Below are positions 3,745-24,040 of a stretch of DNA of 25,551 bases, in pieces. Within the stretch, counting starts at the first letter, position 1; each line of letters opens with the position of its first letter. The stretch covers positions 1 to 25,551 of the forward strand of contig JAZDJN010000092.1 in assembly GCA_043803945.1 (NCBI GenBank), read 5' to 3'. The stretch comes from a bacterium. Lineage in GTDB: Bacteria; Bacteroidota; Ignavibacteria; UBA10030. The notes beneath the pieces are model-generated. The model saw only the letters and a list, made by a program, of their open reading frames with translations, searched no databases and had not been told where the DNA came from. A program made the position numbers and the translations under genes.

Positions 3745-4332
3745 ATGCAATTACGAAACACACCCAGAGAAAAACTACTACATGCAATCCTGTATTTTGC
3801 CTCTAACGTGAAGAATCCTTCCAAGATCAAAATCTTTAAACTTCTCTATTTTTTTAATTTTGAACACTTCAGGAATACGGGACAGAGTGTCACAAATCTT
3901 GATTACTATGCATTTGATTTTGGTCCCGTTCCAAAAGAGTTTTATCAGGAAATCAATGAGAATAGAGTGCCTTCTGATTTTTTGCCTTACTTAACGATTA
4001 TTCCTTTTACCTCAGAGGAAAGTGGTAAGAAGGGTGGAATGTTCGAAGTAAAAAAGAAACCAGACTTGACGATTTTCTCTCCACGACAACAAAAAATTCT
4101 TGAAAAACTTGCCTTCACGTTTAAGGATGTCGATGCAGGGCTGATTTCAGATGTTTCACACTTCAAAAATCATCTATGGGACCGTACCATAAAAGAAAAA
4201 GGGAAGTTTTCAAAAATAGATTATCTCTTAGCCATCGATGAGGATGCAAAGATTTCAGCAGAAGATGCTCATGAATTGCTGAGAGAGAAGCAAGAGATGT
4301 ATAATAATTTTCCTCCATCATCTACAATTTGA
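3745..4332 (+). CDS. Panacea-domain (DUF4065/SocA/GepA-like) antitoxin-family protein
   Basis: Motifs KIFKLLYF, TGQSVTNLDYYAFDFGPVP and ISDVSH...W are typical of DUF4065. The gene is AT-rich relative to its neighbours. Confidence 0.8.
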   Translation: MQLRNTPREKLLHAILYFASNVKNPSKIKIFKLLYFFNFEHFRNTGQSVTNLDYYAFDFGPVPKEFYQEINENRVPSDFLPYLTIIPFTSEESGKKGGMFEVKKKPDLTIFSPRQQKILEKLAFTFKDVDAGLISDVSHFKNHLWDRTIKEKGKFSKIDYLLAIDEDAKISAEDAHELLREKQEMYNNFPPSSTI

Positions 4333-5213: not shown

Positions 5214-7136
5214 ATGTACGATTTCATCTTCAAACCGTTCAACGAAATGACTGAATCCGATTACTCAACTGTCGGATTTATGTCAGGCCTTGAAATCCAT
5301 CAACAACTCTACACCGAGAAAAAGTTATTCTGCCGCTGCCCTGCAGGTCAGTATAGCGAAGTCTACGACGCCGAAATTCTGCGGCATATGCGCCCCACAC
5401 TTTCTGAGTTAGGCGAATATGACGGCACGGCACTGATGGAATTCAAGACTAAAAAAGAAATCATTTATCGCATTAAGCGTGAAACGGTTTGCACCTACGA
5501 GATGGACGACACTCCACCCTTCGAACTTAACGACCACGCGCTTGATGTTGCACTTGGTATTGCCATGCTCTATCGCTGTTTTATGGTGGACGAACTGCAC
5601 ATTGCACGAAAACAGTACCTCGATGGAAGCATTCCCACCGGATTCCAGAGAACAACAATTGTCGGTGTTGACGGAAAAATTCCCTACCGCAACCGTGAAA
5701 TCCGGATTTTTCAATTAGGATTGGAAGAAGATGCCTGCCGGGAAGTGAGCGATATCGGTCATCAGCGCGTCTATCTGACCGACCGTCTGGGCATGCCGCT
5801 CATCGAAACGGTCACGGCGCCCGATATGCGGACACCCTACGAAGTCGCAGAGGTCGGGCAGATTCTCAGACGCATCGTACGGAGCACAGGCATGGTACGT
5901 ACGGGGATTGGTGCGGCACGCCAGGATGTGAATGTGAGCGTTACGGGCGGAACCAGAGTAGAAATTAAAGGAGTTCCGCGAATCCCCAACATTCCATTGC
6001 TCACCTACAACGAAGCCATGCGGCAATGGAACCTGCTGCGTCTGCGGGAGGAACTTGCTCGGCGCGGAATCACTCCAGAGACATTCTGGTCACGTACCGA
6101 ACAGGTAACCAAACTCCTGAAGAAGACACGATTCCATCCAATTGCAAGTGCGCTCAATTCCGGAATGGTGGCGTATGCGGTTATCCTTCAGGGCTACAAA
6201 GGATTGCTTCGCTGGCAAACACAAACCGATACATTTTTCTCACGGGAAATTTCTGATCGCGTTCGTGTCATCGCATGCCTCACCACACTTCCCAACATCG
6301 TCCATTCAGACAGCCCGAGTGAAACACTCTCGACGTCCGACTGGAAAGCGATCAGGAAAGCCACCGGTACAACTGAAGATGACACTGTCGTAGTTGTGTG
6401 GGGCGATAAACAGGATTCAGAGACAGGAGCGAAAGAAATTGCGATTCGTGCAAAGGAAGCGACAATCGGAATACCTTCAGAAACTCGACAGGCATTGAGC
6501 GATGGAACAAATGGTTTTGAACGTATCCTTCCGGGCCCAGATCGGATGTACCCTGACACTGACTTGCCGCCAAAGAAAGTCACTCCCGAACGACTTGAGA
6601 GCATTCGTATCGCATTGCCTCAACCTGTTTGGCTGCGAGAAGCGTGGTATCAGACGCTCGGCATTCCTCAGGATGTGATCAAACCCCTGGCAATGTCTCC
6701 CTTTGCAGATCTTTTCGAAACCGTCACGAAAGAGTGGCAGTTCAATCCCTCTCTCGCATCGGTCGCACTGGTTCAATGGCGAAAGAGGTTGAAACGGAAA
6801 GGACTAAACGTCTCTCTCTTGACAGTCGAAATCATGAAATCAATATTTCAATTATTTCATAAGAAGCATATTGCCAAGGAGGGAATCTCTCTCCTGATGG
6901 AGCGGACATGCAAACGAGGAACACTCGCTGTGGAAGATATTCCTTCTCCCTGTCCTGATACTGAATTTTCTCTGATAGTGGATTCATCGCATCAGCTTAT
7001 TCACTCTCTGTCACTGCGTCATGAAGAGAAAGAAGAGGAAGTCCGGATGGGATATGTGATGAATAAACTACGGGGAAGAATCGACGGAGCAGTTGTTGCC
7101 GAACGGGTTGGATTCCGAAAGGAGGTGCAGCAATGA
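5214..7136 (+). CDS. gatE: Glu-tRNA(Gln) amidotransferase subunit E (archaeal-type)
   Basis: 640 aa with GLEIHQQL..KLFCRCP, RPTLSELGEYD, DGSIPTGFQRT, LEEDACR, DRLGMPLIE, RQDVNVSV, VEIKGV, an AspRS-like insertion (IVHSD region), LPGPDRMYPDTDLPP and a tail MGYVMNKLRGRIDG. The insertion and motifs distinguish GatE from GatB. Confidence 0.93.
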   Translation: MYDFIFKPFNEMTESDYSTVGFMSGLEIHQQLYTEKKLFCRCPAGQYSEVYDAEILRHMRPTLSELGEYDGTALMEFKTKKEIIYRIKRETVCTYEMDDTPPFELNDHALDVALGIAMLYRCFMVDELHIARKQYLDGSIPTGFQRTTIVGVDGKIPYRNREIRIFQLGLEEDACREVSDIGHQRVYLTDRLGMPLIETVTAPDMRTPYEVAEVGQILRRIVRSTGMVRTGIGAARQDVNVSVTGGTRVEIKGVPRIPNIPLLTYNEAMRQWNLLRLREELARRGITPETFWSRTEQVTKLLKKTRFHPIASALNSGMVAYAVILQGYKGLLRWQTQTDTFFSREISDRVRVIACLTTLPNIVHSDSPSETLSTSDWKAIRKATGTTEDDTVVVVWGDKQDSETGAKEIAIRAKEATIGIPSETRQALSDGTNGFERILPGPDRMYPDTDLPPKKVTPERLESIRIALPQPVWLREAWYQTLGIPQDVIKPLAMSPFADLFETVTKEWQFNPSLASVALVQWRKRLKRKGLNVSLLTVEIMKSIFQLFHKKHIAKEGISLLMERTCKRGTLAVEDIPSPCPDTEFSLIVDSSHQLIHSLSLRHEEKEEEVRMGYVMNKLRGRIDGAVVAERVGFRKEVQQ

Positions 7137-8521
7137 GTACGGAAGCCAACTATAAGGGGTATCGCGGCGAAGCGCTCTCGGTCTTAAAGAACTTTGGCGC
7201 TCAGGTCTGGAGTGATGTCGAAATCAAGACCAGCAGAGGATCTTATGCAGGAATTGTCCTGCCGCGATCTGAGACGGCGGATCCGAATCACATCGTTCTC
7301 AAATTGCGATCTGGATATAACATCGGGATTGCAGCGAATAGTATTGAAGCAATTCTTTCAATAGGAAGAAAAGAAGCACACTATAAAATTCCCGAGAAAG
7401 AATTTCCTTACGATCCAAAAAAACCGCGGGTCAAGCTTCTCGGAACAGGCGGTACGATTGCCAGCAGGCTCGACTATCGAACAGGCGCCGTGATCCCTGC
7501 CTTTTCTCCCGGAGAGTTGTATGGCTCTGTGCCCGAACTTGCCGACATCTGTAATCTCGAGACTGAAAAATTGTACGGGGTCTTCAGCGAAAATATGGGC
7601 CCCGAACAGTGGCGCGGTACTGCAGAAGCAATCGGGCGGGAAATCCAAAAAGGTGTGCAGGGAATTGTTATCGGGCATGGTACAGACACGATGCACCATA
7701 CAGCCGGTATTCTTTCCTTTATGGTTCAGAATTCTCCAGTACCAATCGTGATGGTAGGTTCTCAGCGCTCCAGCGACCGGCCCTCATCTGATGCGGCGCT
7801 GAACCTGATGCACAGTGTCAAGACTGCTGCAGAAAGTGATATTGCCGAGGTGATGGTCTGTATGTTTGGTCCAACATCGGATGACTATGGACTTCTTCAT
7901 CGCGGGACGCGTGTCCGGAAAATGCATTCAAGCTACCGATCGACATTCCGGACAATCGGCGATATACCGATTGCCATGGTGAGCCGCGAAAAGATCACAC
8001 CGCTCCGGCAGGATTACAAGCGGAGACGTGATGATAAGGATGTTATCATCAACACTGCATTCGAAGAGATGGTAAGTATCGTTTACTATTATCCTAACAT
8101 GCGCCCGGACATCATCGATTCCCTCATCGACAATAAGTATAAAGGTATCATCATCGCTGGCACCGGATTGGGCCACGTAAACAAACCCCTTTATCCTGCC
8201 CTCAAGCGAGCCAAAGAGAATAATATTGCAGTCTATATGACCGTTCAGACACTATGGGGATATGTTCAAATGTATGTGTACGACACCGGTCGGGATATGA
8301 TGGAACTCGGGGTGGTGCCCATGGCGAATATGCTGCCCGAAATCGCCTATGTTAAACTCGGTTGGGCGCTCGGCCAGACATCAAATCTCGATGAAGTGAA
8401 AAAAATCATGTTTACGCCGATCGCGGGTGAGATCACCGAACGCGAACCCAGCAACGGGTATTTGATTTTCCAGGGTGGTATTCCGGAGGTCGAAGAGTTT
8501 ATTTCGAAGTATAGAAAATAA
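7133..8521 (+). CDS. gatD: Glu-tRNA(Gln) amidotransferase subunit D (asparaginase-like glutaminase)
   Basis: 462 aa with the GatD-specific N-terminal domain (VLKLRSGYNIGI), GTGGTIASRLDYRTGAV, HGTDT, GSQRSSDRPSSD, RKMHSS, GTGLGHV and MLPEIAYVKLGWALG. ATGA overlap with the gatE stop. Confidence 0.93.
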   Translation: MSTEANYKGYRGEALSVLKNFGAQVWSDVEIKTSRGSYAGIVLPRSETADPNHIVLKLRSGYNIGIAANSIEAILSIGRKEAHYKIPEKEFPYDPKKPRVKLLGTGGTIASRLDYRTGAVIPAFSPGELYGSVPELADICNLETEKLYGVFSENMGPEQWRGTAEAIGREIQKGVQGIVIGHGTDTMHHTAGILSFMVQNSPVPIVMVGSQRSSDRPSSDAALNLMHSVKTAAESDIAEVMVCMFGPTSDDYGLLHRGTRVRKMHSSYRSTFRTIGDIPIAMVSREKITPLRQDYKRRRDDKDVIINTAFEEMVSIVYYYPNMRPDIIDSLIDNKYKGIIIAGTGLGHVNKPLYPALKRAKENNIAVYMTVQTLWGYVQMYVYDTGRDMMELGVVPMANMLPEIAYVKLGWALGQTSNLDEVKKIMFTPIAGEITEREPSNGYLIFQGGIPEVEEFISKYRK

Positions 8522-8817: not shown

Positions 8818-9486
8818 ATGAGTGAAATTTTAGCTTCATTGCAAAAGTGTATTGAACGCGGTAAAGTTAATATCAAATCCCCATACCCCCCGGACATGAA
8901 AGGGCAGGATGGAGCAGATGAGTTGGCCCGCAAGGCGCTCGATTCAGGAGTCTCTCCACAGGATATTCTCTCCAACGCATTGATGCTGGGCATGCAGCAT
9001 GTTGGAGTTCGATTCCGTAATAAGGAAATTTTTGTCCCTGATGTCTTGATGGCTGCAAAAGCAATGGCGGCTGCCATGGAGCATCTGAAACCGTTCTTTC
9101 AATCAGCAACCCTAAAACACCGCGGCTCCATCGTTATTGGGACCGTCATGGGCGATTTACACGACATTGGCAAGAAACTCGTGTCGATGGTCGTTGAAGG
9201 TGCCGGCTGGGAGGTCGTTGATCTCGGTACCGATGTCTCCGCTGAAAAATTTCTGAAAGCGGTTGAAGAACATCCGGGATGTTCAGTTGGCCTAAGCGCA
9301 TTGCTTACCACAACCATGGTCCACATGGAAAGCACAGTCCAGAAAATTAAGGCTGTCTCTCCCACAACAAAGATCATCATTGGCGGAGCGCCCGTTACCA
9401 AGGAATTTGCGCAGAAGATCGGCGCAGATGGTTACTCTCCCGATCCGCAGGGTGCGGTTGAATTCCTCAATGCCGGTTTGGTTTAG
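8818..9486 (+). CDS. Corrinoid (cobalamin-binding) protein: cap domain plus B12-binding domain
   Basis: GMQHVGVRF...FVPDVLMAAKAM cap, GDLHDIGK (DxHxxG), LSALLTTT and IIGGAPV. Confidence 0.93.
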   Translation: MSEILASLQKCIERGKVNIKSPYPPDMKGQDGADELARKALDSGVSPQDILSNALMLGMQHVGVRFRNKEIFVPDVLMAAKAMAAAMEHLKPFFQSATLKHRGSIVIGTVMGDLHDIGKKLVSMVVEGAGWEVVDLGTDVSAEKFLKAVEEHPGCSVGLSALLTTTMVHMESTVQKIKAVSPTTKIIIGGAPVTKEFAQKIGADGYSPDPQGAVEFLNAGLV

Positions 9487-9494
9487 GGATCAGC

Positions 9495-10226
9495 ATGAGT
9501 GAATCCAATCATCCTGAGATATACCATTTTACTCCGACATTTTCAGACCTCGTCATCCACCGCCCGTTGATTGAACGGGCGCTGGGTTATAAAAGCGGTT
9601 CGGTTCCGCAAATCGTCGAACATATCATCGACGAAGTATTGCCGGATGTGCCACAACACCTCTCCATCCAGTGCGGCTTCAGAATTCTTCCGCCAGGAAC
9701 TCTCTCCATCTCCAAACAAGCCATTGAATTTAATGGTACACGCTTTGAGACCGCCCCGATTATCTCGACACGGCTTCGGAATTCACTCAGCCTTGCTCTC
9801 TTTGTTGCGACCATCGGACCACGATTAGAGCAATGGTCAAGACAACATTTAGACGAGGGTGATTCGGTTCGCGGCTTCATCATTGATGCAATCGGTTCTG
9901 AGGCCGTGGAACAAACGGCAGATTGGCTGGAGAAACAATTGCAGCAGATTGTCAAGGAACGCGGGTGGAACAGCACCAATCGGTACAGCCCCGGTTACTG
10001 CGATTGGATGGTGATTGAACAACATAAACTCTTCTCCCTTCTCCCTCCCGATTTTTGCGGAATCCGATTAACCGAGAGCGCCCTGATGGTTCCGATCAAA
10101 TCGGTGAGCGGCTTCATCGGCCTCGGTCCCGATGTGAAAAAGGAGGAATACCAATGTTCCATTTGTGACCTTCAGGATTGTTTCAGACGCAGGGAAGAAT
10201 CCACCATCGAAGCTCCTACTATATGA
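9495..10226 (+). CDS. Stand-alone B12-dependent methionine synthase activation (AdoMet-binding) domain protein
   Basis: LFVATIG, IIDAIGSEAVE, RYSPGYCDW, GIRLTESALMVPIKSVSG, and a C-terminal CxxCxxxxC motif. Confidence 0.88.
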   Translation: MSESNHPEIYHFTPTFSDLVIHRPLIERALGYKSGSVPQIVEHIIDEVLPDVPQHLSIQCGFRILPPGTLSISKQAIEFNGTRFETAPIISTRLRNSLSLALFVATIGPRLEQWSRQHLDEGDSVRGFIIDAIGSEAVEQTADWLEKQLQQIVKERGWNSTNRYSPGYCDWMVIEQHKLFSLLPPDFCGIRLTESALMVPIKSVSGFIGLGPDVKKEEYQCSICDLQDCFRRREESTIEAPTI

Positions 10227-11140
10227 AACCCAAAATTGTTGTCGTCGGCAGTGCAAACACCGATATGATTCTCAAGACCTCTCATCTCCCCAAATCGGGG
10301 GAGACTGTTCTGGGAGGAAAATTTTCGATGGCAGCAGGAGGCAAAGGAGCAAACCAGGCTGTGGCCGCTGCACGAGCCGGCGGAGATGTTACCTTCATAT
10401 CGCGGTTGGGTTGTGATCTCTTTGGTGAGCAAGCCCTGGCTGGCTATATACGCGATGGCATTAATACTCAATTTATCCAGCAGGAACCGGAGACTTCTTC
10501 AGGAATTGCATTCATCGTCGTTGATGCAAACGGCAATAACAATATTGCAGTCGCATCGGGTGCTAATGCTCATCTCTCACCCGATGACATTAATCTTGCC
10601 AGAAGCGCCATCGCTGCTGCGGATATCCTCCTGGTTCAATTAGAAATTCCCATCGAAACAGTACGCCATGCGATTCTTCTTGCGTCTCAGGCGGGTGTTA
10701 CGACAATATTGAATCCGGCTCCGGCTCAATTACTCGAGCATGAACTTTTGGGACTCGTTTCAATCCTGACACCAAACGAATTTGAAACTGAAATGCTGAC
10801 AAAGATTAGTGTGAAAGAAGATCCATCAGCGCCTGCACGGGTCCTTCTGAAGAGTGGAGTCGCGAAGGTTATTATTACTCTCGGTGAGCGTGGCGCTTTT
10901 TTTGCAGATGGGACACATTCGGAATTGATACTTGCCTATCCCGTTAAAGCAGTGGACACTACGGCAGCGGGCGATGTATTTAATGGAGTTCTTGCTGTCG
11001 CTGTAGGAGAAAAACAGGAGATCCGATCGGCTATTCGATTTGCCAATGCGGCCGCAGCATTATCTGTCACTAAGCTCGGAGCACAGCCTTCAGCACCATC
11101 ACGGAATGAAATTGAAAGTCTCATCGCTGCTGGAAAATAG
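10223..11140 (+). CDS. rbsK: Ribokinase (PfkB family)
   Basis: Start at ATG 10223 (ATGA overlap with the upstream stop). VVGSANTD, GGKGANQAVAAAR, QLEIP, LNPAP, TPNEFE and DTTAAGDVFNG. Confidence 0.88.
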   Translation: MKPKIVVVGSANTDMILKTSHLPKSGETVLGGKFSMAAGGKGANQAVAAARAGGDVTFISRLGCDLFGEQALAGYIRDGINTQFIQQEPETSSGIAFIVVDANGNNNIAVASGANAHLSPDDINLARSAIAAADILLVQLEIPIETVRHAILLASQAGVTTILNPAPAQLLEHELLGLVSILTPNEFETEMLTKISVKEDPSAPARVLLKSGVAKVIITLGERGAFFADGTHSELILAYPVKAVDTTAAGDVFNGVLAVAVGEKQEIRSAIRFANAAAALSVTKLGAQPSAPSRNEIESLIAAGK

Positions 11141-11181
11141 AACACCATTTCTTAGTACGAAGCGTGAGGGAGCATAGTACC

Positions 11182-11727
11182 ATGAGACATGAAGAGATTA
11201 TCGCAATTCAGCGACGTACAGCAGAGATACTTCAGAAGTCGCACATCGCAGTAACAGCTCAAGAGAGAGAGAGTATCGAAGTCGCGGATTTTGGGCTCAA
11301 CGACATTGAGAACGTGGGGCTCGAAATTGTGGTCTATGAAAACAATGACCGCTATTGCGCTAAAGAACTGATAATGTTTCCGCGGCAGATCTGTCCGGAA
11401 CATCGCCACCCTGCCATCAGCCCGCAAAATACCGGCAAACAGGAAACCTTTCGATGCAGATTTGGAGAAGTGTACTTATATAGTGAGGGGCCACCAACTC
11501 CAAACCCAAAAGCAGTTGTCCCCGACCAATACAAACCTTTCATGACCGTCTGGAAGGAAATTATTCTTACTCCAGGCCATCAGTACACACTTCCCCCGAA
11601 TACGTTGCATTGGTTTCAGGCTGGCGACGCAGGTGCGGTAGTTTCCGAATTCTCTTCGACGAGCATCGATGAAGCAGATATCTTTACCGATCCGAATATC
11701 AAGCGCATGCCCGAGGTCGAAGCATAA
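11182..11727 (+). CDS. D-lyxose/D-mannose family sugar isomerase (cupin)
   Basis: VADFGL, YCAKEL, QICPEHRHP, GKQETFRCR, PNTLHWFQAG, VSEFSSTS.DE.DIFTDP. The start is ATG 11182 or GTG 11164. Confidence 0.88.
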   Translation: MRHEEIIAIQRRTAEILQKSHIAVTAQERESIEVADFGLNDIENVGLEIVVYENNDRYCAKELIMFPRQICPEHRHPAISPQNTGKQETFRCRFGEVYLYSEGPPTPNPKAVVPDQYKPFMTVWKEIILTPGHQYTLPPNTLHWFQAGDAGAVVSEFSSTSIDEADIFTDPNIKRMPEVEA

Positions 11728-12884
11728 TGACAGCCAAAGAACGATTCCTTGCCGCTCTTGAACGAAGGATGCCCGACCGGCTTCCGGTGACGACGCATCA
11801 TGTCATGGAATTCTTTCTCAAGAAGTATATGAACGGAATTTCCACCGATGAGTTTTTTGCGACGTTCGAGCTTGACCCGATTCGCTGGGTGAACATTTTC
11901 AAACCGGGCGATTCCAATGGAGAATATTTCGATCCGACAGACCACCCCGGACCGCTGGAACCCTGCCGTATCTCTTCCGATTCATGGAGGATTGAACAGG
12001 AAGAACTTGCCAACCCGCACTATACAACCATTCGATATAATATTATCACACCCAAAAAAACATTAACCACGGTACTTCAAAGTAACGAACATACCACATG
12101 GGTTTCAGAGCGATTGATCAAAGAGAAAGCGGATATCGACGTTATAGCACTCTATGCCACCAAACCAACATGTGATGTTCAGCGCGTGAACCGCTCTGCT
12201 GAGGAATTTGGCGACCGCGGGTTGGTTCGTGGACACATTGCCTGCTTCGACATTTACGGCCAGCCCGGATGCTGGCAGGATGCATCGGTTCTCTATGGGA
12301 TTGAAGAATTGATCATGGCAACATTTGAGGATCCTGACTGGGTTCACTTGTTCTTGAAAATACTCTTTGAGAGAAAAGATACCTACATCGAATCTCTATT
12401 CGGAGCACGGTACGATCTTCTTGAACTCGGAGGGGGCGATGCTTCTTCAACCGTAATCTCACCGCAGATCTTTGATGAATTTGTCGCTCCCTACGATACA
12501 GAACTTATTTCGAACGCCCATGCTGCCGGCCAGCGTATTGTGTACCACACCTGCGGCGGGATGATGCCATTCCTGGAGCAGATTGCCAATTTGAAACCCG
12601 ATGCAATGGAAACCTTCACGCCTGAAGGGATGGGTGGAGATACACTCCTTTCTAAAGCCAAGCAGCGCATCGGACACCAGGTCTGTATGATCGGCGGATT
12701 CGATCAATTTCATTTCTTTAAGGGATGCACACCTGAGGCAACGCGACAGGAGGTTCGACGTTGTTTCGAAGAAGCCGGATCGGGCGGCGGCTATATCCTC
12801 TGCCCATCAGATCATTTTTTCGATGCAGACATTGAGTTAGTTGCAGCATTCGCCGATGAAGCAAAAAAATGTCTCTATCCCTAA
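11727..12884 (+). CDS. Uroporphyrinogen decarboxylase / MtaA-CmuA family TIM-barrel protein (putative corrinoid methyltransferase)
   Basis: MTAKERFLAAL..RMPDRLPV start, ISPQIFDEFVAPY, YHTCGG (H-x-C metal motif), MIGGFDQ and GGYILCPSDHF. TAATG overlap with the upstream gene. Confidence 0.82.
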   Translation: MTAKERFLAALERRMPDRLPVTTHHVMEFFLKKYMNGISTDEFFATFELDPIRWVNIFKPGDSNGEYFDPTDHPGPLEPCRISSDSWRIEQEELANPHYTTIRYNIITPKKTLTTVLQSNEHTTWVSERLIKEKADIDVIALYATKPTCDVQRVNRSAEEFGDRGLVRGHIACFDIYGQPGCWQDASVLYGIEELIMATFEDPDWVHLFLKILFERKDTYIESLFGARYDLLELGGGDASSTVISPQIFDEFVAPYDTELISNAHAAGQRIVYHTCGGMMPFLEQIANLKPDAMETFTPEGMGGDTLLSKAKQRIGHQVCMIGGFDQFHFFKGCTPEATRQEVRRCFEEAGSGGGYILCPSDHFFDADIELVAAFADEAKKCLYP

Positions 12885-16611: not shown

Positions 16612-19026
16612 TCAATGTTCATCGATGGTATCAACTTCTTTCCATTGTCCGTCTCGTTCAAATCTCAACGTTCTGATCTCGAACGGAGCGAAGGAGATTT
16701 TCAATGATTTCTTCATTGTCTTGAGCTTAAGTGTAGATTGTGTTGGCCTCCCTGTGGTTTCCTGCAACCGAATAATTAAGGCTTTACCATCCCACGAGCG
16801 TTTGTACGCCAGCATGCGGATCTTGGATGGAACAAGTTCAACGAAGTTGTCAAGTTGTGATTGTTTTTTACCTATCGGAAGATGAGAGTAAGCCAGCGGC
16901 GGAGCAATCAGCCACTCTGCCAGACCTGCTACCCGGTTACGTACTTCATCGGTATCACCTGCCGTTACCAGGAGATGAATATCATGAATTCCCTGATCCA
17001 TAAATTTTCTAGCAGGCGTGTCGCCCAGGGCAAGTCCCTGTTCATGGCAATATGCTGCACTCCGTAACACTGAGAGTCTCAATTCCCCATCCAGAAGATC
17101 GATTCCATGCTGTCCGTTATTGATCAGAGCAAGTGCCGTCTTCCGTCCATTGATTTCCCCTTCGACCATGCACCATCGTCCATGCACATGCTCCTGTCCA
17201 TCCGCAGGGCGATGAATAGCTCCTCCAGGCACTTCACAGAGGAGAGAGCTAGAATTGAAGGATGTCGGTATGGCAAGCTTCAATCGCCGGAGTGCTTCAT
17301 TCCATTGGATCCTGAACTGAAATTCGAGCACCGGCCAATCGGGATATGAAAGCGTACGGAGTGCGATGGTACTTTTATTATAGGTGAATACGGATTCCGT
17401 AATTCTTCGAATCGGACCATCTGCAATCACACAGAACCTTTCAGGGATTGGAACGAATTCAGCTATAACATTTCTGTAACTCCACCTGTCACTACCCCAC
17501 GCATCACCATCATCTTCAACGATAAGCGGCTGCAGCAACAATCCATTTAAACACTCCCTTCCTCCACCGGCATCAAGATTCCGAATTAATCCCTCCTGAG
17601 GATCGAGTTTATAGTTCATTACAGGAGCACACCCCGATTGCTCACGTGTTCCCTCATGGAGCTGCAGTTCGTATCGGGACACACCCAATTGAGGAAGCTC
17701 TGCCTTAAAACTCACCCTCCTTCTCCATGAGTTAAAGGGCAGCAACGACTCGGGTTGCTCCTCCTGGCATGGGATTTCACTACCATCAAGTGCATAAAGC
17801 CGCAGATGCCAGTTTCCTGTCCATTTTGGCTGGTAGGCAATGACACATTCAACTTGAGCAGGACAGCTTGTGACCGAAGGATTGGTATTATAGAGAGAGA
17901 CGGGGATATAAAGACATCGATGGTTTCCTTTGTTGAGATTCGTTGCCGCTCCCGTTCGAATGCGTCTTACGGATTCTGCGGAACGGCCATACTGATCAAG
18001 TGCGTCGTGTTCTGCGGGTTCTATGCAAGATCCAGGCAGAATGTCATGAAAATCGTTAAACAGATGATCGCACCATGCTTCTGCCAATGTATCCTCGGGG
18101 TACGGCTGATGATTGTGCCACCAGGACGCGGAGCGCAGTGCTTCCGCCTGCACAAGCTCGGCAAGACCTTTCTGTGCACGGCGCTTCACACGCGAGAGCG
18201 AGGTATAGCATCCTGTGAATGCGCGTTGAAGATCTCCCTGGAAAATTGGGGCATGCGTTTTATACTTCCTTAATGCATGGTATAAATTCTCCGTGGTGCT
18301 GTAGATGATGTTTATCCGCTCTTCTCTTGCCATGCATTCATCGATGATCGCAAGCGCCTCCTGTGTTGCTCCTCCGCCATGATTGCCCACACCCCAGAAC
18401 ACCGGCACATCGCGTTTCAGTTGAAGTGCCAGTTCAATCCCCTGCTCAATTCTGCTCTGAATATTCTCAGCTTCTGCATGGTATAATCCGACCGCGATCC
18501 GGTAGGTGAGTATCTCCGAACCATCCACACCCTTCCATCGATACAGATCGGCTGGTAAGTCGAGCTCATGCTTCTGTGGGCGCATATGGATATACATATG
18601 ATATCCGGCAAGGTTCAGGATCTGTGGCAAACCGCCGCTGTGTCCAAACGAATCAAAATTGTAAGCAACGATTGGTTCTACATTGAAGTGTTTGCGGAAG
18701 AACTGCCTTCCTTCCGCGATGTGCCTGATGATCGACTCGGTTCCGGGGATATTGACATCCGGCTGTAAATACCAGCCTCCGCTGATACACCAACGCCTGT
18801 TCCTGACAAGTCTCTGGATCTGTTTGAATAATGGGCGATCATATTCGAGAACCCAGCGATAGAGCACCGACTCGTTATGATTGAAGATGAATTGTTTATG
18901 CTCATTAATTAATTCGATGGCATTGCCAAATGTGGCCAGTGCCTCGGAACATCCCTCTTCCCATCGCCATTGCCAGACGGGATCAAGGTGGGCGTTGCAG
19001 ATCATATGGATGGTTGGTTTCTTCAT
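16612..19026 (-). CDS. Glycoside hydrolase family 38 (alpha-mannosidase-like), probably cytoplasmic
   Basis: NAHLDPVWQW (Zn ligands), GGWYLQPD, FDSFGHS (nucleophile Asp), GVGNHGGG, GCYTS and FHDILPGS. No signal peptide. Confidence 0.9.
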   Translation of the reverse strand: MKKPTIHMICNAHLDPVWQWRWEEGCSEALATFGNAIELINEHKQFIFNHNESVLYRWVLEYDRPLFKQIQRLVRNRRWCISGGWYLQPDVNIPGTESIIRHIAEGRQFFRKHFNVEPIVAYNFDSFGHSGGLPQILNLAGYHMYIHMRPQKHELDLPADLYRWKGVDGSEILTYRIAVGLYHAEAENIQSRIEQGIELALQLKRDVPVFWGVGNHGGGATQEALAIIDECMAREERINIIYSTTENLYHALRKYKTHAPIFQGDLQRAFTGCYTSLSRVKRRAQKGLAELVQAEALRSASWWHNHQPYPEDTLAEAWCDHLFNDFHDILPGSCIEPAEHDALDQYGRSAESVRRIRTGAATNLNKGNHRCLYIPVSLYNTNPSVTSCPAQVECVIAYQPKWTGNWHLRLYALDGSEIPCQEEQPESLLPFNSWRRRVSFKAELPQLGVSRYELQLHEGTREQSGCAPVMNYKLDPQEGLIRNLDAGGGRECLNGLLLQPLIVEDDGDAWGSDRWSYRNVIAEFVPIPERFCVIADGPIRRITESVFTYNKSTIALRTLSYPDWPVLEFQFRIQWNEALRRLKLAIPTSFNSSSLLCEVPGGAIHRPADGQEHVHGRWCMVEGEINGRKTALALINNGQHGIDLLDGELRLSVLRSAAYCHEQGLALGDTPARKFMDQGIHDIHLLVTAGDTDEVRNRVAGLAEWLIAPPLAYSHLPIGKKQSQLDNFVELVPSKIRMLAYKRSWDGKALIIRLQETTGRPTQSTLKLKTMKKSLKISFAPFEIRTLRFERDGQWKEVDTIDEH

Positions 19027-19029
19027 GAG

Positions 19030-19908
19030 TCACCTTCTGGTTGAAAATGTCTCAGCAAGCTTTGTAATAAAATTCGCATTTGTCCCGCAGCAACCTCCGA
19101 TAAAATTTGCTCCCGCGGCAACGATTTCTTTTGTATAAGAGGAAAACTGTTCCGGCAATGCTCGGTAAGCGATCTTGCCATTGACAATCTCCGGCATTCC
19201 CGCATTTGGTTTGATCCAGATGGGGAGAGCTGTAAGTGATCGAAGGCTTTTACAGATAGAAAGAAAATGCTCGACCCCCATCCCGCAATTAGCTCCAAGG
19301 GCGTCGACATCGATCGCTTCAAGCTGTTCCACGACTTCTTCCGGACTGTTACCCATCATCGTCCGGTCGTGATGCAACCCGGAGTCGAACACCATGGAGA
19401 CAATGACCGGTAAGCCTGTACTTTTCGCTGCCCGAGCTGCAATGACCGCCTCCTGAAGGTCGCTCATCGTTTCGACAACGATCCCTTGAGCGCCCCCTTC
19501 GGCAAGGGCTTGTGCCTGCTCATTGAACGCAGCAGACATTTCTTCTTCGGTGATCTCTTCAGTCATCAAGAGTTTTCCAGTCGGACCCATCGATGTAAAG
19601 ACCAGGGTTTCGCTTCCGGCAGCCTTTCTTGAGAGTGACGCTCCTGCCCGATTTATTTCTCCGGTCTTCGCCTCTGCTCCATGGGAAGCGAGCATGATCC
19701 TGTTTGCACCAAATGTATTACTGAGGATGATCCGGCTTCCGGCTTTCACGTACGAGCGTGCAACAGCTTCTATCGCCTCCGGCTTGGTCAGATTCCAAAG
19801 GTCGGGGCATTCCCCCGGCTTCAGACCGCGTTGTTGAAGTTGTGTTCCCCAGGCACCATCGGTAATGATAGGGGATTGTTCAAGTAGAGACTTTATGGTT
19901 GGATGCAT
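19030..19908 (-). CDS. Homocysteine S-methyltransferase family protein (stand-alone MetH Hcy-binding module)
   Basis: TDGAWGT, NTFGAN, GPTG, VETMSD, GANCG, KPNAGMP and IGGCCGT (Zn-binding cysteines). Confidence 0.92.
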   Translation of the reverse strand: MHPTIKSLLEQSPIITDGAWGTQLQQRGLKPGECPDLWNLTKPEAIEAVARSYVKAGSRIILSNTFGANRIMLASHGAEAKTGEINRAGASLSRKAAGSETLVFTSMGPTGKLLMTEEITEEEMSAAFNEQAQALAEGGAQGIVVETMSDLQEAVIAARAAKSTGLPVIVSMVFDSGLHHDRTMMGNSPEEVVEQLEAIDVDALGANCGMGVEHFLSICKSLRSLTALPIWIKPNAGMPEIVNGKIAYRALPEQFSSYTKEIVAAGANFIGGCCGTNANFITKLAETFSTRR

Positions 19909-20135: not shown

Positions 20136-21698
20136 TTAAAAAGGGAAATCCTTGGTATTATCGAAGTCGCCTTCAACTTTTTTTACCTGAGGTTTCTTGG
20201 CAACCTGGTGGGTGGTATTGGAGGTGACATAAATTGCTTTGCGCGGAACTGTCGGGCATGCATGCTCGCAGGCACCGCACCCTACACAAATATCATTATT
20301 CAACTCAGGAAGCATCAGCTTCCCTTCGTACGGTATCATGTGAACTGCTTTTGTCGGGCAATGCTCAGAACACGCACCGCAATCTTTCTTCTTCGTAATG
20401 ACAATGCAATCATCCTTTACAAAAGCCGCCTTTCCGATCTGCACAAGCTTCTTTGCTTCTTTGCCTAATGGTAAAATCGCACCGCTCGGACAGACCTCTC
20501 CACAAACCGTGCAATCGTAATTGCAATAGCTGGCGTTATAATTCATGCGAGGCTGGAATACTCCTGCAATCCCATACTCGATGAACGACGGATAAAGCAC
20601 CTGGGGAGGACATGCAGTAACACAGAGATGGCAGGCAGTACAATAATTCGTGAAATGCGCAGTGCTCCGAGACCCGGGAGGCGTTACGGGAGTCCGCCTG
20701 CTCTCACCGTAACTGATCGGTGATGCAGCAGTCGAATCATTGGCTACGGTAATAGGTATCGTTGCCATCGCAGCGGAAGAAACTGCGGCCCCCATGAATT
20801 GCCTGCGGCTTTCATCTACCGGTTTCGATTTCCGATGCAGTAAGGTCTCTTTCCAATAATTCTCATACTTCAATCCGACGCTTGGACAGACATCGATACA
20901 ATTAAAGCAACTAACACACTGGCTGAAATCGATCATCTTCTTACCACTCTCAATACAGTTTGCTTTACAGACTTTTTCGCAAAGCTTGCACTCTGTGCAT
21001 GTCTCTTCGTTGACAACTATTTTAAAAAAAGAGACACGCGAGAGAATGCCTAGGAATGCTCCTGCGGGACAGAGTGTATTACAGAACAATCTGCCATGGT
21101 TGTAGGACATATAGACGACGACTGCGAGGAAGAGAACAGGAACAATCAGCGCCCAAATCTGAACGGGCCGGATGAAGAGAGCATGCAGGGTGTAGAGACC
21201 GAATTTCCCCAGGATGAACGCGGCGGCATTATTGACATGGCCGACGAGGGGATTAAAAAGGTTGGAGATGATCCTTCCATAATTACTGAAGGGTTCCACA
21301 AGGTTTAGCAGAATCAAACTGCCGCTTGCAAATGCCAGCGTGATAATCCCAAAGAGCGAATAATGGAGAAGTGTATAGGGCTTCCGGTATTTAAACCATC
21401 TCCTCTTCCGGTTCCGCTTCGCGATCTTAATGACGACATCCTGCAATGTCCCCAGCGGACAGATCGACGAGCAATAAACCCTGCCAAACAGAAGTGTGAG
21501 AAGAAGAACAAATCCTAATCCGAGCGAACTGAGGGCAGTGTAGGTGAGAATTTTCGTAAGTGACGGAATGAGTTGAAGAGAAACAAAAAACGTTGTGACC
21601 GATGTGGGAAATATTTCCCACAAATCCAGAAACAAGAAGGTTACAATTGCAAAGAAAAACAGTGAAATACCAACACGAATCTTCTTCAGTCGCTGCAA
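20136..21698 (-). CDS. Membrane polyferredoxin, NapH/MauN-like plus NapG/MauM-like fusion
   Basis: TTG start with a GGGGAG RBS. Several TM segments, CSSICP and CNTLCP motifs, two CxxCxxCxxxC motifs, internal SRRQFMG plus a hydrophobic stretch, then four more 4Fe-4S motifs. Confidence 0.88.
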   Translation of the reverse strand: MQRLKKIRVGISLFFFAIVTFLFLDLWEIFPTSVTTFFVSLQLIPSLTKILTYTALSSLGLGFVLLLTLLFGRVYCSSICPLGTLQDVVIKIAKRNRKRRWFKYRKPYTLLHYSLFGIITLAFASGSLILLNLVEPFSNYGRIISNLFNPLVGHVNNAAAFILGKFGLYTLHALFIRPVQIWALIVPVLFLAVVVYMSYNHGRLFCNTLCPAGAFLGILSRVSFFKIVVNEETCTECKLCEKVCKANCIESGKKMIDFSQCVSCFNCIDVCPSVGLKYENYWKETLLHRKSKPVDESRRQFMGAAVSSAAMATIPITVANDSTAASPISYGESRRTPVTPPGSRSTAHFTNYCTACHLCVTACPPQVLYPSFIEYGIAGVFQPRMNYNASYCNYDCTVCGEVCPSGAILPLGKEAKKLVQIGKAAFVKDDCIVITKKKDCGACSEHCPTKAVHMIPYEGKLMLPELNNDICVGCGACEHACPTVPRKAIYVTSNTTHQVAKKPQVKKVEGDFDNTKDFPF

Positions 21699-21707
21699 GA
21701 CGCTCCC

Positions 21708-22631
21708 CTACACGGTAATCCGTTTGATATTCAGGTTCTCCAAGTCCATCCTGCCAACTTTCTGTTCTGCGGCAAGAGTGATGTACCGAACTTCTTTTGG
21801 ATCCATCCCAAAGAGCTTTGTTGCTGCCGTATCGATGGCGACGATATCCGTGGAGATCAGGAGAGACTTCATTGTTGCCACATCTTCAACGGAGACTCCG
21901 CGAGGGCCATTTCGTTTCATGACAAAGTAAGCATCAACCACATTTAATGTCGGTTTTCTGAAGGTGGCAAAATCGGCGATGCATTGATGAAGGTCGTTGC
22001 CATGCCAGAAACCGCGATCCCACACATTCCCCATCAGATTCTTCATTCCAATGGTGATGCGTGATGAACTGTGATGTTTAAGAATAGGCACGTTAATGAA
22101 GACGTCGGACGAGAGAATCACTTCATGTTCTTTCGACCTCGTCAGTGTTTTACCGGCCGGCACTGACACATTCTGATAGTAACCTTCTGTATGAGCAGGC
22201 ACGACCTTTGCACCAGCGAGTTTTGCCGCTTCCTCAATGCCGCTGTTTTTATAGCATCGCTGCCAATTGTCGCAGGTATGATCGAAGACATACACTTCTT
22301 TTGCTCCGGCTGCCAGACATTCTTTAACAATCTCACTGATCAGCTTTGGATGGGTGTTACCGCCCCGGTCGGGTGGTACGTCCCAGCCCATATTCGGTTT
22401 GATGGCGACCTTTTGGCCTTTTTTCACAAAGGATTTTATTCCGCCCAGGGCTTCGATTCCCTTCTGGAACATCACATCGGGATCGCCGCCGCGCACGGCA
22501 ACGAGATCGAATGGCACTGTTCCTTTTTCCTGAGGAACAGCACCGAGCAGATTTTGCTGCTGTAACGCGAGGTAAGATCCTGCCGCTAATGATGCACCGA
22601 GACTTTTTCTGAAGAATGACCTTCTATCCAT
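21708..22631 (-). CDS. Tat-exported DUF362-domain protein
   Basis: Start moved to ATG 22631 (MDRRSFFRK). VAIKPNMGW, NTHP, FDHTCD, INVPILKHH, GMKNLMG and DIVAID. Confidence 0.85.
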   Translation of the reverse strand: MDRRSFFRKSLGASLAAGSYLALQQQNLLGAVPQEKGTVPFDLVAVRGGDPDVMFQKGIEALGGIKSFVKKGQKVAIKPNMGWDVPPDRGGNTHPKLISEIVKECLAAGAKEVYVFDHTCDNWQRCYKNSGIEEAAKLAGAKVVPAHTEGYYQNVSVPAGKTLTRSKEHEVILSSDVFINVPILKHHSSSRITIGMKNLMGNVWDRGFWHGNDLHQCIADFATFRKPTLNVVDAYFVMKRNGPRGVSVEDVATMKSLLISTDIVAIDTAATKLFGMDPKEVRYITLAAEQKVGRMDLENLNIKRITV

Positions 22632-22733
22632 AGCTTCCCTACTACTTCTTGATGGTTGACAATTTTTCTTTGCTGTAGAAGCTATAAAACACTTAAAGGA
22701 AAGGCAAGGGGAATGTTGCAAGTGAGGAAGCGG

Positions 22734-22883
22734 AGAAGTCCGTCTTTTTCCTTAGAAACACCTTTGAGAAAAGATGGACTTCTATCTATCCAACGAAGAC
22801 TACTTCAGTCGTATTTATTGAGAACCTGATTGTAGATGACCGTCATCTTACTGAGGTTTATCTCTGAGAGATGACGGTCATCT
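22734..22883. repeat. Pair of REP-like inverted doublets (type A then type B)
   Basis: AGAAGTCCGTCTTTT 22734 / AAAAGATGGACTTCT 22769; AGATGACCGTCATCT 22834 / AGATGACGGTCATCT 22869. Confidence 0.85.
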
Positions 22884-22897
22884 CTCTCATCTTAGAG

Positions 22898-23803
22898 TTA
22901 CTCAAACAGCTTGAGATATGAGAGAATATCTTTAGAGCAATCCTTTGATGCTTCAACAAATATAAGCGACGTCGGATTGAGTTGGCGGAGCGAAAGGCGA
23001 GAATTTCCTGAAATGCGTTGTGCAAATGTCTTTCCAGGCGGAGTCGAAAATCCCTGTTTAACACTAAACTCTTTCAAATCGCTCTTTGATGCGAACTCAA
23101 TCAGAGCAATCCAGATCCACTCCTTTTCCCTCTCGATCGGAAGGATGTAAGCATGGTACCCCGAGAAGCCCTCAAACCGATCCTCCCAATCCGCAAAACT
23201 ATTCTGCACTCCCAATCTACCATACATCAATTTGATGTTCTGTTGATGAAGTGCAAGTTTGGTATTCCGGAACTGCGGCGGAAGGTTAATCTTCGTCGAC
23301 TTGATCTTTCGAAGTAATCTCTGTGCAAATTGTACCATGCGTTCTCTGGTCTGATCAGAACCGGAAGCATTGCTGATATTAATATAATATTCAGAACATG
23401 CTATCTGCAGTTGATGCGAAGAGAGGCAGGAGTATAGAGAAAGCGAATCGACAGAAACGCCCGCCTTCCTAAGAACTTGTTCGGCAGGCAGGCACTTCGA
23501 TCTGTTGATGGAAAAAATTCCAAAGGCATGCAGCGGGCTTTTCATCTTATAGATCTGAATTGTAAACTCATCACCGGCAATTGCAATCTCCTGCAGGCCA
23601 AGGATCTCGAATCCATACTCAAGATACAGTTCAGCTCCTCCATCGATGTAGCCAAAGAGCGCTTTTCCTTTGAACGTCTCTACACGTGTGACAGTAGCTC
23701 CGAGAAGATCCTCTCCCTTAAGGATAGGAAGTCCTTTCTCCTGAGACCACGGAAGGGGATTTGTGAAGAGAAGAAGAATTGCGATATATATTATGCACTT
23801 CAT
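22898..23803 (-). CDS. Exported hypothetical protein, DUF6599-like
   Basis: Signal peptide MKCIIYIAILLLFTNPLPWSQ. LFGYIDGGAELYLEYGF and IYKMKSPLHAFGIFS motifs. The family name is from recall. Confidence 0.7.
   Translation of the reverse strand: MKCIIYIAILLLFTNPLPWSQEKGLPILKGEDLLGATVTRVETFKGKALFGYIDGGAELYLEYGFEILGLQEIAIAGDEFTIQIYKMKSPLHAFGIFSINRSKCLPAEQVLRKAGVSVDSLSLYSCLSSHQLQIACSEYYINISNASGSDQTRERMVQFAQRLLRKIKSTKINLPPQFRNTKLALHQQNIKLMYGRLGVQNSFADWEDRFEGFSGYHAYILPIEREKEWIWIALIEFASKSDLKEFSVKQGFSTPPGKTFAQRISGNSRLSLRQLNPTSLIFVEASKDCSKDILSYLKLFE
23460..23492 (-). repeat. 33-bp REP-like element lying in-frame inside the DUF6599-like gene
   Basis: The minus strand reads CCTGCCTGCCGAA-CAAGTTCTTAG-GAAGGCGGG. 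The first 13 nt are identical to the intergenic element at 5033 and the 3' arm is 7/9 identical. It encodes LPAEQVLRKAG. Confidence 0.65.
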
Positions 23804-23822
23804 AGAATCTTTCAGGTATGGA

Positions 23823-23969
23823 AGATGACCGTCATCTTACTAAGGTGTAACGCGATTAGATGATGGTCATCTATACAACCGTTCAGGTCGGGAGCGAAAC
23901 TCCCTCCCAGTTACCAGCAGAAGTCCGTCTTTTTACATCGAATTACCAGTGAGTAAAAGACGGACTTCT
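23823..23969. repeat. Pair of REP-like inverted doublets (type B then type A)
   Basis: AGATGACCGTCATCT 23823 / AGATGATGGTCATCT 23858; AGAAGTCCGTCTTTT 23919 / AAAAGACGGACTTCT 23955. Confidence 0.85.
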
Positions 23970-24003
23970 ATAATGCGAGATGAGTAATTACTTAAAAATA
24001 TTC

Positions 24004-24038
24004 ATCAGTGAAAATCTGTGACATCAGTGTTATCTGTG
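24004..24038. repeat. Four 9-10-bp-period ATC(A/T)GTG tandem units (single arm)
   Basis: ATCAGTG 24004, ATCTGTG 24014, ATCAGTG 24023 and ATCTGTG 24032, directly after the DUF362 stop. Same motif as 14627-14663. Confidence 0.6.
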
Positions 24039-24040
24039 GT

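Follow-up and report, generated by a model that had tools for sequence, protein, structure and literature searches.

A corrinoid-protein operon with sugar kinase and isomerase genes as a candidate system for oxygen-independent demethylation of methylated sugars

The window studied here is a 25,551-nt stretch of DNA, contig JAZDJN010000092.1 (C92) of assembly GCA_043803945.1, from a bacterium of the class Ignavibacteria (lineage UBA10030). Positions 8818-12884 of its forward strand carry a five-gene operon encoding a corrinoid (B12-carrier) protein, an activation protein resembling the activation domain of methionine synthase (MetH), a PfkB-family sugar kinase, a cupin isomerase and a member of the uroporphyrinogen decarboxylase (UroD)/MtaA superfamily, hereafter the UroD-like protein. 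We propose that these genes belong to a B12-dependent, oxygen-independent system that demethylates a methylated sugar and delivers the methyl group to homocysteine or folate. We give this pathway, as drawn below, an even chance of being correct. The sugar is probably manno- or lyxo-configured. That the UroD-like protein is a corrinoid-dependent methyltransferase we regard as likely. The overall scheme is a well-supported hypothesis rather than a finding, and we infer its activity, substrate, metal and direction of transfer. The genome that contains the window comprises 5.5 Mb in 118 contigs and is rated 100% complete; the nearest relatives of the window's genes are found in Ignavibacteria/Bacteroidota metagenome-assembled genomes (MAGs). 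Contigs of this genome, sampled genomes and related loci are numbered with the prefixes C, G and L, respectively.

Organization of the operon

The five open reading frames (ORFs) are co-oriented and closely spaced. The gene encoding the 222-residue corrinoid protein (8818-9486, +; PF02310, 87.8 bits; PF02607, 67.3 bits) ends with a TAG that is separated by 8 nt from the ATG of the next gene. The latter encodes a 243-residue, TM0269-like protein that resembles the MetH activation domain (9495-10226, +; PF02965, 42.8 bits over profile positions 123-253 of 273) and overlaps the kinase gene (10223-11140, +) in a 4-nt ATGA. Judged from the sequence, the most probable start of the kinase is ATG 10223 rather than TTG 10178, the start given in the ORF list. 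The isomerase gene (11182-11727, +) follows after 41 nt if it starts at ATG 11182, which is preceded by a GAGGGAG-like ribosome site, or after 23 nt if it starts at the alternative GTG 11164. It overlaps the gene of the 385-residue UroD-like protein (11727-12884, +) by 1 base in a TAATG. An earlier, sequence-only reading of this DNA had listed five co-oriented genes with these contents, joined by an 8-nt spacer, an ATGA overlap, a gap of about 40 nt and a TAATG overlap, and had noted an H-x-C motif in the last product. All of the ORFs are present and their family matches agree; the junctions were read from the sequence as described, the approximate gap being 41 nt, and the motif is H274-T-C276. 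An unrelated zinc-ribbon membrane protein gene begins 63 nt after the UroD-like gene and is shared by none of the 80 related loci described below.

The kinase passes two ribokinase equivalog models (TIGR02152, 365 bits versus a cut-off of 299.65; PRK11142, 350 versus 341 bits) and matches PF00294 with 225.5 bits. The isomerase belongs to the D-lyxose/D-mannose isomerase family, passing PF07385 with 35.8 bits (cut-off, 20.8); its matches among solved structures are the D-lyxose/D-mannose family isomerase of PDB entry 7nzo (E 3.6e-79) and entry 2y0o (E 1.3e-60).

The UroD-like protein

The UroD-like protein matches PF01208 (82.1 bits) over residues 182-381 only. Against MtaA/CmuA-type NCBIfam models it scored 50-61 bits, far below the respective cut-offs (TIGR01463, 50.8 versus 235.4; PRK06252, 60.8 versus 244; MtaA_Meth, 53.5 versus 400). 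Its sole sequence match in the PDB is the MtaA-type chain 4ay7 (E 0.005), whose HICGN aligns with HTCGG of the query. H274 and C276 are invariant in all 31 sequences of an alignment comprising 28 orthologues and three paralogues. We take the H-x-C motif to be the zinc site of MtaA, absent from HemE, and the zinc ligands of MtaA/CmuA proteins to be His-x-Cys plus a distal Cys. Among aligned family members, S361-D362-H363 is nearly invariant; C320 and C346 are kept among orthologues and not in the closest paralogue.

An AlphaFold (AF2) model of the protein (pLDDT 93.8, pTM 0.92) comprises a UroD barrel with an extra β-sheet subdomain at approximately residues 52-128. In a Foldseek search of this model, the MtaA-type methyltransferases 4ay8/4ay7 ranked first (E 1.1e-13, TMq 0.60), with true uroporphyrinogen decarboxylases close behind. 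Identity as HemE was rejected: no hemE model (TIGR01464) matched at E ≤0.01, and the H-x-C motif is present. The genome has 13 further UroD-family matches. In the five of its 14 UroD-family genes that were scanned with NCBIfam, none reached the hemE cut-off, the best scoring 99 versus 303 bits.

When clustered at 90% identity, the family yields at least 4,804 groups (E ≤1e-20; 7,999 candidates scored), whose only names are uroporphyrinogen decarboxylase (family) and hypothetical protein. The ESM Atlas yielded unnamed URO-D clusters only. Orthologues of 63-72% identity occur in MAGs labelled Ignavibacteria/Bacteroidota, Chloroflexi, Aminicenantes, Hydrogenedentota, Spirochaetes, Verrucomicrobia and others. 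The orthologue is patchy within the class, being present in seven of 151 sampled genomes, our own included, and in none of seven genomes of the same family.

Neighbourhoods of the UroD-like family

Neighbourhoods were counted in 80 loci carrying an orthologue of the UroD-like protein. Counts of corrinoid, activation, kinase and isomerase genes rest on tblastn; other neighbours were annotated using Pfam on representatives of clusters present in at least two loci, such that genes of a single locus carry no annotation. The clustering captured the UroD genes of 69 loci, the rest having been lost to antisense frames in high-GC loci.

A recognised carbohydrate gene lies near the orthologue in 60 of the 80 loci. 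The isomerase gene is immediately upstream in 25 loci, and a glycoside hydrolase family 38 (GH38) α-mannosidase gene is nearby in 15, the orthologue sitting right after it in many Chloroflexi loci. Overall, 30 loci contain a glycoside hydrolase of some kind (GH38, GH31, GHL10, GH78-like, GH3, GH116, GH2, GH29, GH127 or DUF2961). A PfkB kinase occurs in 12 loci, five with 52-60% identity to the ribokinase of the operon and seven encoding another kinase at 30-34%. Sugar ATP-binding cassette (ABC) permeases and further UroD paralogues each occur in 12 loci. No aromatic-catabolism genes were found among the recurrent neighbours in the 80 loci. The identical five genes in identical order were present in five loci (L010, L011, L013, L014 and L023), all labelled Ignavibacteria/Bacteroidota. 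MAGs that carry the labels Aminicenantes and Eubacteriales also pair the isomerase with the UroD-like gene, there alongside another PfkB kinase. The repeated association with the isomerase and GH38 suggests a manno- or lyxo-configured sugar. Two ribose-type substrates, 5-methylthioribose and 2-O-methylribose (from RNA), were considered for the ribokinase match and ranked lower because the ribokinase recurs in only 5/80 loci, versus 25/80 for the isomerase and 15/80 for GH38.

Other UroD copies of the same genome also have sugar-related neighbours. The closest paralogue (37% identity) is encoded between GH38 and GH123 genes, near those of a rhamnose mutarotase, a BNR protein and a GH29 enzyme. 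Further copies have as neighbours GH67 together with a ribose-type ABC transporter, a sugar ABC transporter together with a glycyl-radical enzyme, or sugar symporters; a few adjoin housekeeping genes. At C82:22500-40500 (L114), a GH67 α-glucuronidase gene lies 2.8 kb from one UroD-like gene, and a second, fuller-length MtaA/CmuA-like gene ends a ribose-type ABC transporter operon that includes a β-helix GH141-like protein. GH67 enzymes free 4-O-methyl-glucuronate from xylan.

Corrinoid carrier and activation protein

The carrier comprises a cap domain and a Rossmann B12-binding domain, its PF02607 and PF02310 matches both exceeding their cut-offs, with the motif GDLHDIG in its translation. D113, H115 and G118 are invariant in all ten aligned sequences. 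Its nearest NCBIfam models are of the MtgC and pyl_corrinoid types, all below cut-off (MtgC, 194 versus 370). A second corrinoid protein, encoded on contig C99, is 54% identical to it.

To relate the UroD-like protein to the carrier, we modelled their complex, a check that the sequence-only reading had proposed. The complex passed, with an ipSAE of 0.79 (runs, 0.78-0.79) versus 0.01 for the best of three controls. At least 91% of contacts were common to the runs, and the partner had a pLDDT of at least 87. Of 157 solved complexes, 116 reached the mark applied, as did 2 of 215 mismatched pairs; these figures are only roughly valid here because our own alignments were used. On the UroD side, the modelled interface consists of the invariant loop 241-248, residue 277 and residues 301-304, around the H-x-C site. 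On the carrier side, it consists of loops 112-117 (DxHxxG), 164-165 and 190-192 together with cap residues 69-81. The model supports binding of the carrier by the UroD-like protein.

Genes for the carrier and the activation protein lie beside the orthologue in nine of the 80 loci, and a carrier gene adjoins it in the class genomes G124, G133 and G151 as well. We also considered a separate set of 36 orthologue-bearing genomes without an adjacent activation gene. All 36 contained a PF02607 match, and 34 encoded a stand-alone carrier in an open frame of 184-290 residues. In a 35th, the carrier-like gene is a 382-residue frame next to a homocysteine S-methyltransferase (HcyMT) gene, and in G020 PF02607 matched only in frames of 923 and 299 residues. 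In the class sample, a stand-alone corrinoid gene (best E ≤1e-40) was present in all seven orthologue-bearing genomes versus 41 of the 144 others.

The best solved match of the activation protein is TM0269 (PDB 1j6r; E 3.4e-9), with the RxSPGY stretch aligned. In 14 aligned relatives, S165-P166-G167 of this RYSPGY motif, which we take to be S-adenosylmethionine-binding, are invariant and R163 is nearly so. A C-terminal CxxCx5C tail, kept in 12 of these relatives, might bind a metal or an iron-sulfur cluster through which electrons enter. The tail is missing from two copies linked to MttB-family genes (L123 and L127), and a third such copy (L129) has a variant. No match to RamA-type activases (PF14574) was found in the genome. 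The putative activator is of the MetH activation-domain type, where RamA/RACE-type systems have an ATP-dependent activase.

A candidate methyl acceptor in the window

The five-gene operon encodes no acceptor-side methyltransferase. Six kilobases away, on the opposite strand, is a pair of genes that the sequence-only account of the methyl route had overlooked. The first encodes a 292-residue HcyMT (19030-19908, -) that matches the full PF02574 profile with 229.6 bits and scores below cut-off with PRK08645 (269 bits, N-terminal part) and PRK07534 (243 bits). It is a candidate for the second methyltransferase. The second gene begins 3 nt downstream and encodes an 804-residue GH38 α-mannosidase (16612-19026, -; PF01074, 167.5 bits; PF07748, 59.6 bits; PF09261, 54.4 bits). 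This mannosidase is 47-51% identical to the GH38 enzymes encoded near the orthologue in L040, L064, L067 and L068. The two genes are probably co-transcribed, and HcyMT is likely the methyl acceptor enzyme. PF02574 has three matches in the genome: MetH, a 642-residue open frame and this HcyMT, the only stand-alone copy.

A second candidate for the acceptor side is encoded on contig C99, where a methyltetrahydrofolate:corrinoid methyltransferase-like (MeTr-like) gene occurs with the genes for MTHFR, its small C-terminal-domain partner and the second corrinoid protein. PF00809 (pterin-binding) matched only on C33, C101 (MetH) and C99. Of the four modules of methionine synthase (homocysteine, pterin, cap/B12 and activation), the window therefore lacks the pterin module. 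The remaining three occur as separate genes, so the window can be viewed as a split methionine synthase in which, going by gene content, the UroD-like protein may replace the folate module. Comparable arrangements occur elsewhere: in L025, an HcyMT gene divergently adjoins the corrinoid-activation-UroD genes; an HcyMT gene lies within 2.6 kb of a stand-alone corrinoid gene in 11 of the 36 orthologue-bearing genomes; and L136 contains corrinoid, HcyMT, MTHFR, partner and MeTr genes in one row.

Proposed pathway

In the proposed pathway, the GH38 mannosidase and other hydrolases would free a methylated sugar in the cytoplasm. The UroD-like protein would hold this sugar at a zinc-type H-x-C site, where the Co(I) of the carrier would take the methyl group and the plain sugar would be released. 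The cupin isomerase would then convert the aldose to a ketose (D-lyxose to D-xylulose or D-mannose to D-fructose) for phosphorylation by the PfkB kinase. The resulting methyl-Co(III) would pass its methyl group to homocysteine via HcyMT, yielding methionine; an alternative sink would be tetrahydrofolate, via the MeTr-like protein of C99 and MTHFR. Oxidised Co(II) would be repaired by the activation protein through reductive methylation with S-adenosylmethionine, as occurs in MetH. MtaB acts on methanol by zinc-assisted Co(I) attack, and if Co(I) attacked an alkyl methyl ether with the help of zinc, the chemistry would be similar.

At a more general level, B12-dependent sugar demethylation may be practised by anaerobic and facultative glycan degraders of several phyla, using split MetH systems in which sugar-specific donor modules replace the folate module. 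The methyl groups of methylated glycans would be fed straight into the methionine/folate pool and three unrelated donor families would have been recruited to this end: the UroD-like family, found next to an isomerase, kinases and GH38; an MtaB-like protein, encoded in this genome next to a hexose kinase and a ROK protein; and MttB-like proteins, which in other genomes adjoin galactokinase and sulfatase. We advance this extension tentatively, and think it somewhat more apt to fail than to hold.

Evidence against the proposal and alternative explanations

Several observations weigh against the proposed pathway. The UroD-like protein fails all curated MtaA/CmuA cut-offs and resembles these models only in its C-terminal half; C359, the candidate for the distal Cys, varies between C, S and A, and no third zinc ligand was pinned down. 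In a sugar methyl ether the leaving group would be worse than in an aryl ether. The ribokinase occurs in only five of the 80 loci, making the exact five-gene set a feature of a single clade. As far as the available part of the report goes, the nearest solved isomerase is specific for D-lyxose, with <2% activity on mannose (PMC8378251), and therefore fits poorly with a ribokinase. Twenty of the 80 loci have no recognised carbohydrate neighbour among the annotated genes, which exclude those of a single locus; these 20 include all four corrinoid-activation-UroD loci that lack the isomerase, two of which (L018 and L030) have an amino-acid-type permease gene upstream. The activation-protein query matched 13 of the 36 orthologue-bearing genomes and gave no match in the other 23. 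Carrier genes occur in 41 of 144 class genomes without the orthologue and also serve MttB-family enzymes, so their presence is not specific. Finally, the score of the complex expresses the confidence of the model itself, and related genomes do not count as independent samples.

These points bear on four alternatives. In one, the UroD-like protein is a corrinoid methyltransferase that takes its methyl group from something other than a sugar. The donor would be a small methylated compound that co-occurs in decaying biomass, for example a methoxylated aromatic compound, free or as its glycoside, or a thiol or amine carrying a methyl group, and the sugar genes would be mere neighbours within catabolic islands. 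The accessible text of PMC10418091 describes OdmB and VdmB, known donor enzymes of the UroD superfamily, as acting on aryl methyl ethers, and mlp clusters as proposed to act on methyl-sulfur or methyl-selenide compounds. The four loci without any recognised sugar gene point the same way. However, the UroD-like gene overlaps the isomerase gene by 1 base in our operon, directly follows it in 25 of the 80 loci and follows GH38 in many Chloroflexi loci, and the recurrent neighbours include no aromatic-catabolism genes. We consider this alternative unlikely. We place at the same level the possibility that the UroD-like protein works without any corrinoid, performing another reaction on a sugar, the corrinoid, activation and HcyMT genes being a split methionine synthase that lies nearby by chance. 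It would account for the adjacency of the corrinoid and activation genes in only nine of 80 loci, for the scores below every methyltransferase NCBIfam cut-off, for the near equality of UroD decarboxylases and MtaA in the fold search, and for clusters that contain no UroD gene (corrinoid-HcyMT, corrinoid-HcyMT-MTHFR-MeTr and MttB-activation-corrinoid). It is at odds with the invariant H-x-C motif that aligns with the HiC of MtaA-type 4ay7, with the lack of a hemE match at E ≤0.01, with the complex model, and with the stand-alone corrinoid gene in at least 34 of 36 and all of seven orthologue-bearing genomes.

The direction of transfer could also be reversed, with the UroD-like protein acting on the acceptor side like MtaA, transferring the methyl group of methyl-Co(III) to a thiol or a sugar hydroxyl in a system that methylates. 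The nearest solved and curated relatives are indeed methylcobamide:coenzyme M methyltransferases, and a zinc site of the H-x-C type that activates a thiol is, as we understand it, the mechanism of MtaA. Against this, most of the sugar loci have no methyltransferase-like gene besides the UroD-like gene, the genes around it are catabolic (hydrolases, importers, a kinase and an isomerase), and the window encodes HcyMT as a separate acceptor enzyme. Such a role is distinctly improbable. We find it hardest to credit that the genes are not functionally coupled at all, a pentose module having been inserted among methyl-transfer genes in one clade, with the wider links reflecting ancestry and crowded catabolic islands. 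The confinement of the full gene order to Ignavibacteria/Bacteroidota-labelled MAGs (5/80), in genomes that are not independent, would fit this explanation. The tight junctions (8 nt, a 4-nt overlap, 41 nt and a 1-nt overlap), the isomerase-UroD pair in Aminicenantes- and Eubacteriales-labelled MAGs with a different PfkB kinase, and the pairing of a second methyl-transfer gene, HcyMT, with a mannosidase in the window argue otherwise.

The sequence-only interpretation is partly supported. It had the UroD-like protein removing a methyl group from a sugar onto cobalamin, and had proposed a survey of gene neighbourhoods as a check. The survey bore out a link to sugar genes (60/80 loci; isomerase, 25; GH38, 15) and one to corrinoid genes, and failed to extend the link to the ribokinase (5/80). 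The corrinoid link gains further from the complex model, and the interpretation as a whole is weakened by the four corrinoid-activation-UroD loci that lack the isomerase and any recognised sugar gene. The same reading knew of no characterised pathway with this gene set. That statement holds only within the literature searched, which left out most subscription journals and in which we found no description of corrinoid-dependent sugar demethylation.

Comparison with known systems

The closest relatives of the UroD-like protein are MtaA and MtbA (4ay7/4ay8; TIGR01463, PRK06252), which provide the best sequence and fold matches, the aligned H-x-C motif and a parallel for the predicted docking of the carrier. 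The UroD-like protein differs from them in scoring 50-61 bits against cut-offs of 235-400, over the C-terminal half only, in its extra β-sheet subdomain, in its sugar-catabolism setting and in its proposed place on the donor rather than the acceptor side. We know of no coenzyme M metabolism in this bacterial lineage. TM0269 of Thermotoga maritima (1j6r) is likewise a stand-alone MetH activation-domain protein, working for a MetH in which this domain is missing; its counterpart in the operon differs in being linked to a carrier and in having a Cys-rich tail.

The published systems below are compared on the basis of the accessible portions of the cited reports. The aryl O-demethylases Odm and Vdm of Acetobacterium dehalogenans and relatives comprise methyltransferase I, a corrinoid protein, methyltransferase II and an activating enzyme. 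They too combine a UroD-superfamily donor enzyme with a corrinoid protein and remove O-methyl groups without oxygen (PMC10418091). They differ in acting on phenolic ethers and in having an ATP-dependent RACE/RamA activator and a folate methyltransferase, whereas our operon has a MetH-type activator and an HcyMT gene nearby. Membership of the classical O-demethylases was rejected on gene content, there being no RamA-type gene. Type 1 mlp clusters, described by Kountz and Balskus and widespread in bacteria, also bring together a corrinoid protein and UroD proteins of the MtaA-like kind and lack a folate methyltransferase; they require Mlp2, Mlp3 and a Ram/RACE activase (PMC10418091). Our operon has sugar enzymes and a single UroD-like gene, and there is no Ram. 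Membership of this group was rejected on the single UroD-like gene and the lack of a RamA-type gene in the genome.

The MtgBCDE hub or split MetH of Ruegeria pomeroyi and Phaeobacter inhibens resembles the present system in that MetH modules are separate and their genes possibly dispersed. One corrinoid protein serves alternative methyl donors there and feeds homocysteine or folate; the donor enzyme is an MttB-family glycine betaine methyltransferase, and the accessible text makes no link to sugar genes (PMC12478193). In Eubacterium limosum, several donor enzymes share MtqC, MtqA and RamQ encoded elsewhere (PMC8604678). The P450 demethylase of 6-O-methyl-D-galactose from marine Bacteroidetes also clears catabolism-blocking methyl ethers within a polysaccharide-utilisation pathway; unlike the proposed system, it is oxygen-dependent, acts oxidatively, releases formaldehyde and belongs to an unrelated protein family (PMC6292453, PMC10033563).

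Within our samples, the corrinoid-activation gene pair also occurs with other donor genes, as MttB-activation-corrinoid-HcyMT in G008 and MttB-activation-corrinoid in G012. A row of galactokinase, corrinoid and MttB genes is present at L123:4047-7949, L124:5523-10765 and L125:3158-8448 (genomes G015, G026 and G027). The activation gene is directly next (L123) or past an aminotransferase gene (L124 and L125), 0-2.8 kb on, and a sulfatase gene is near in L123 and L124. By gene content, these loci, from three probably kindred genomes, may provide a B12 route for methylated galactose from sulfated galactans.

Elsewhere in our genome, at C87:230000-243500 (L118:2155-12879), is a gene for a close MtaB homologue (PF12176, 527.6 bits; NF040651, 420.5 versus a cut-off of 720). 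It adjoins genes for an MtaA/CmuA-like protein, a hexose kinase (TIGR03168, 268 versus 216 bits), a ROK protein and two large proteins of no known family. A second, unrelated methyl-donor family thus stands beside sugar kinases in this locus.

Significance

Methylated sugars are found in algal, plant, bacterial and invertebrate glycans, and the only demethylation route known to us from the literature consulted is the oxygen-requiring P450. The methyl ether of a sugar blocks its ordinary catabolism, according to the available part of PMC6292453. The proposed pathway bears on the fate of methylated sugars in anoxic sediments, peat, digesters and guts. If correct, it would add a substrate class to those of corrinoid methyltransferases and provide an oxygen-free counterpart of the P450 sugar demethylases. 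It would also explain what a family of at least 4,804 protein clusters does, connect the degradation of glycans with B12 demand, methionine and one-carbon metabolism, and offer an oxygen-free biocatalyst for the cleavage of alkyl methyl ethers. The window is a good test case because a candidate donor enzyme, carrier, repair protein, candidate acceptor and sugar enzymes are encoded within 11 kb.

Other features of the window

No Rfam family matched the window at the gathering threshold, and hence no cobalamin riboswitch was found. Pattern scans of the window returned six promoter-like sites versus 7.0 expected and ten terminator-like sites versus 5.6 ± 2.6 expected; neither count is above chance, and both scans are uninformative. 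Upstream of the HcyMT-GH38 pair, positions 20136-25204 (-) encode a 520-residue polyferredoxin whose 4Fe-4S domains are NapH/NapG-like, along with two DUF362 proteins and a DUF6599 protein. These proteins might conceivably provide the electrons for repair of the corrinoid; none of them has a homologue in the 80 related loci.

Upstream of the five-gene operon, and separated from it by a 296-nt gap, are genes for GatE and GatD (5214-8521, +), which constitute an archaeal-type Glu-tRNA(Gln) amidotransferase in this bacterial genome (NF003107, 532.9 versus 456 bits; NF003217, 520.8 versus 310 bits). The gatD_arch model scored above its cut-off in 13 of 61 sampled class genomes, our own included, and in none of four other genomes of the same family. 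A gene for a SocA/Panacea-domain antitoxin-like protein (3745-4332, +; PF13274, 59.2 bits) stands alone between that of a DUF5107-TPR protein and gatE.

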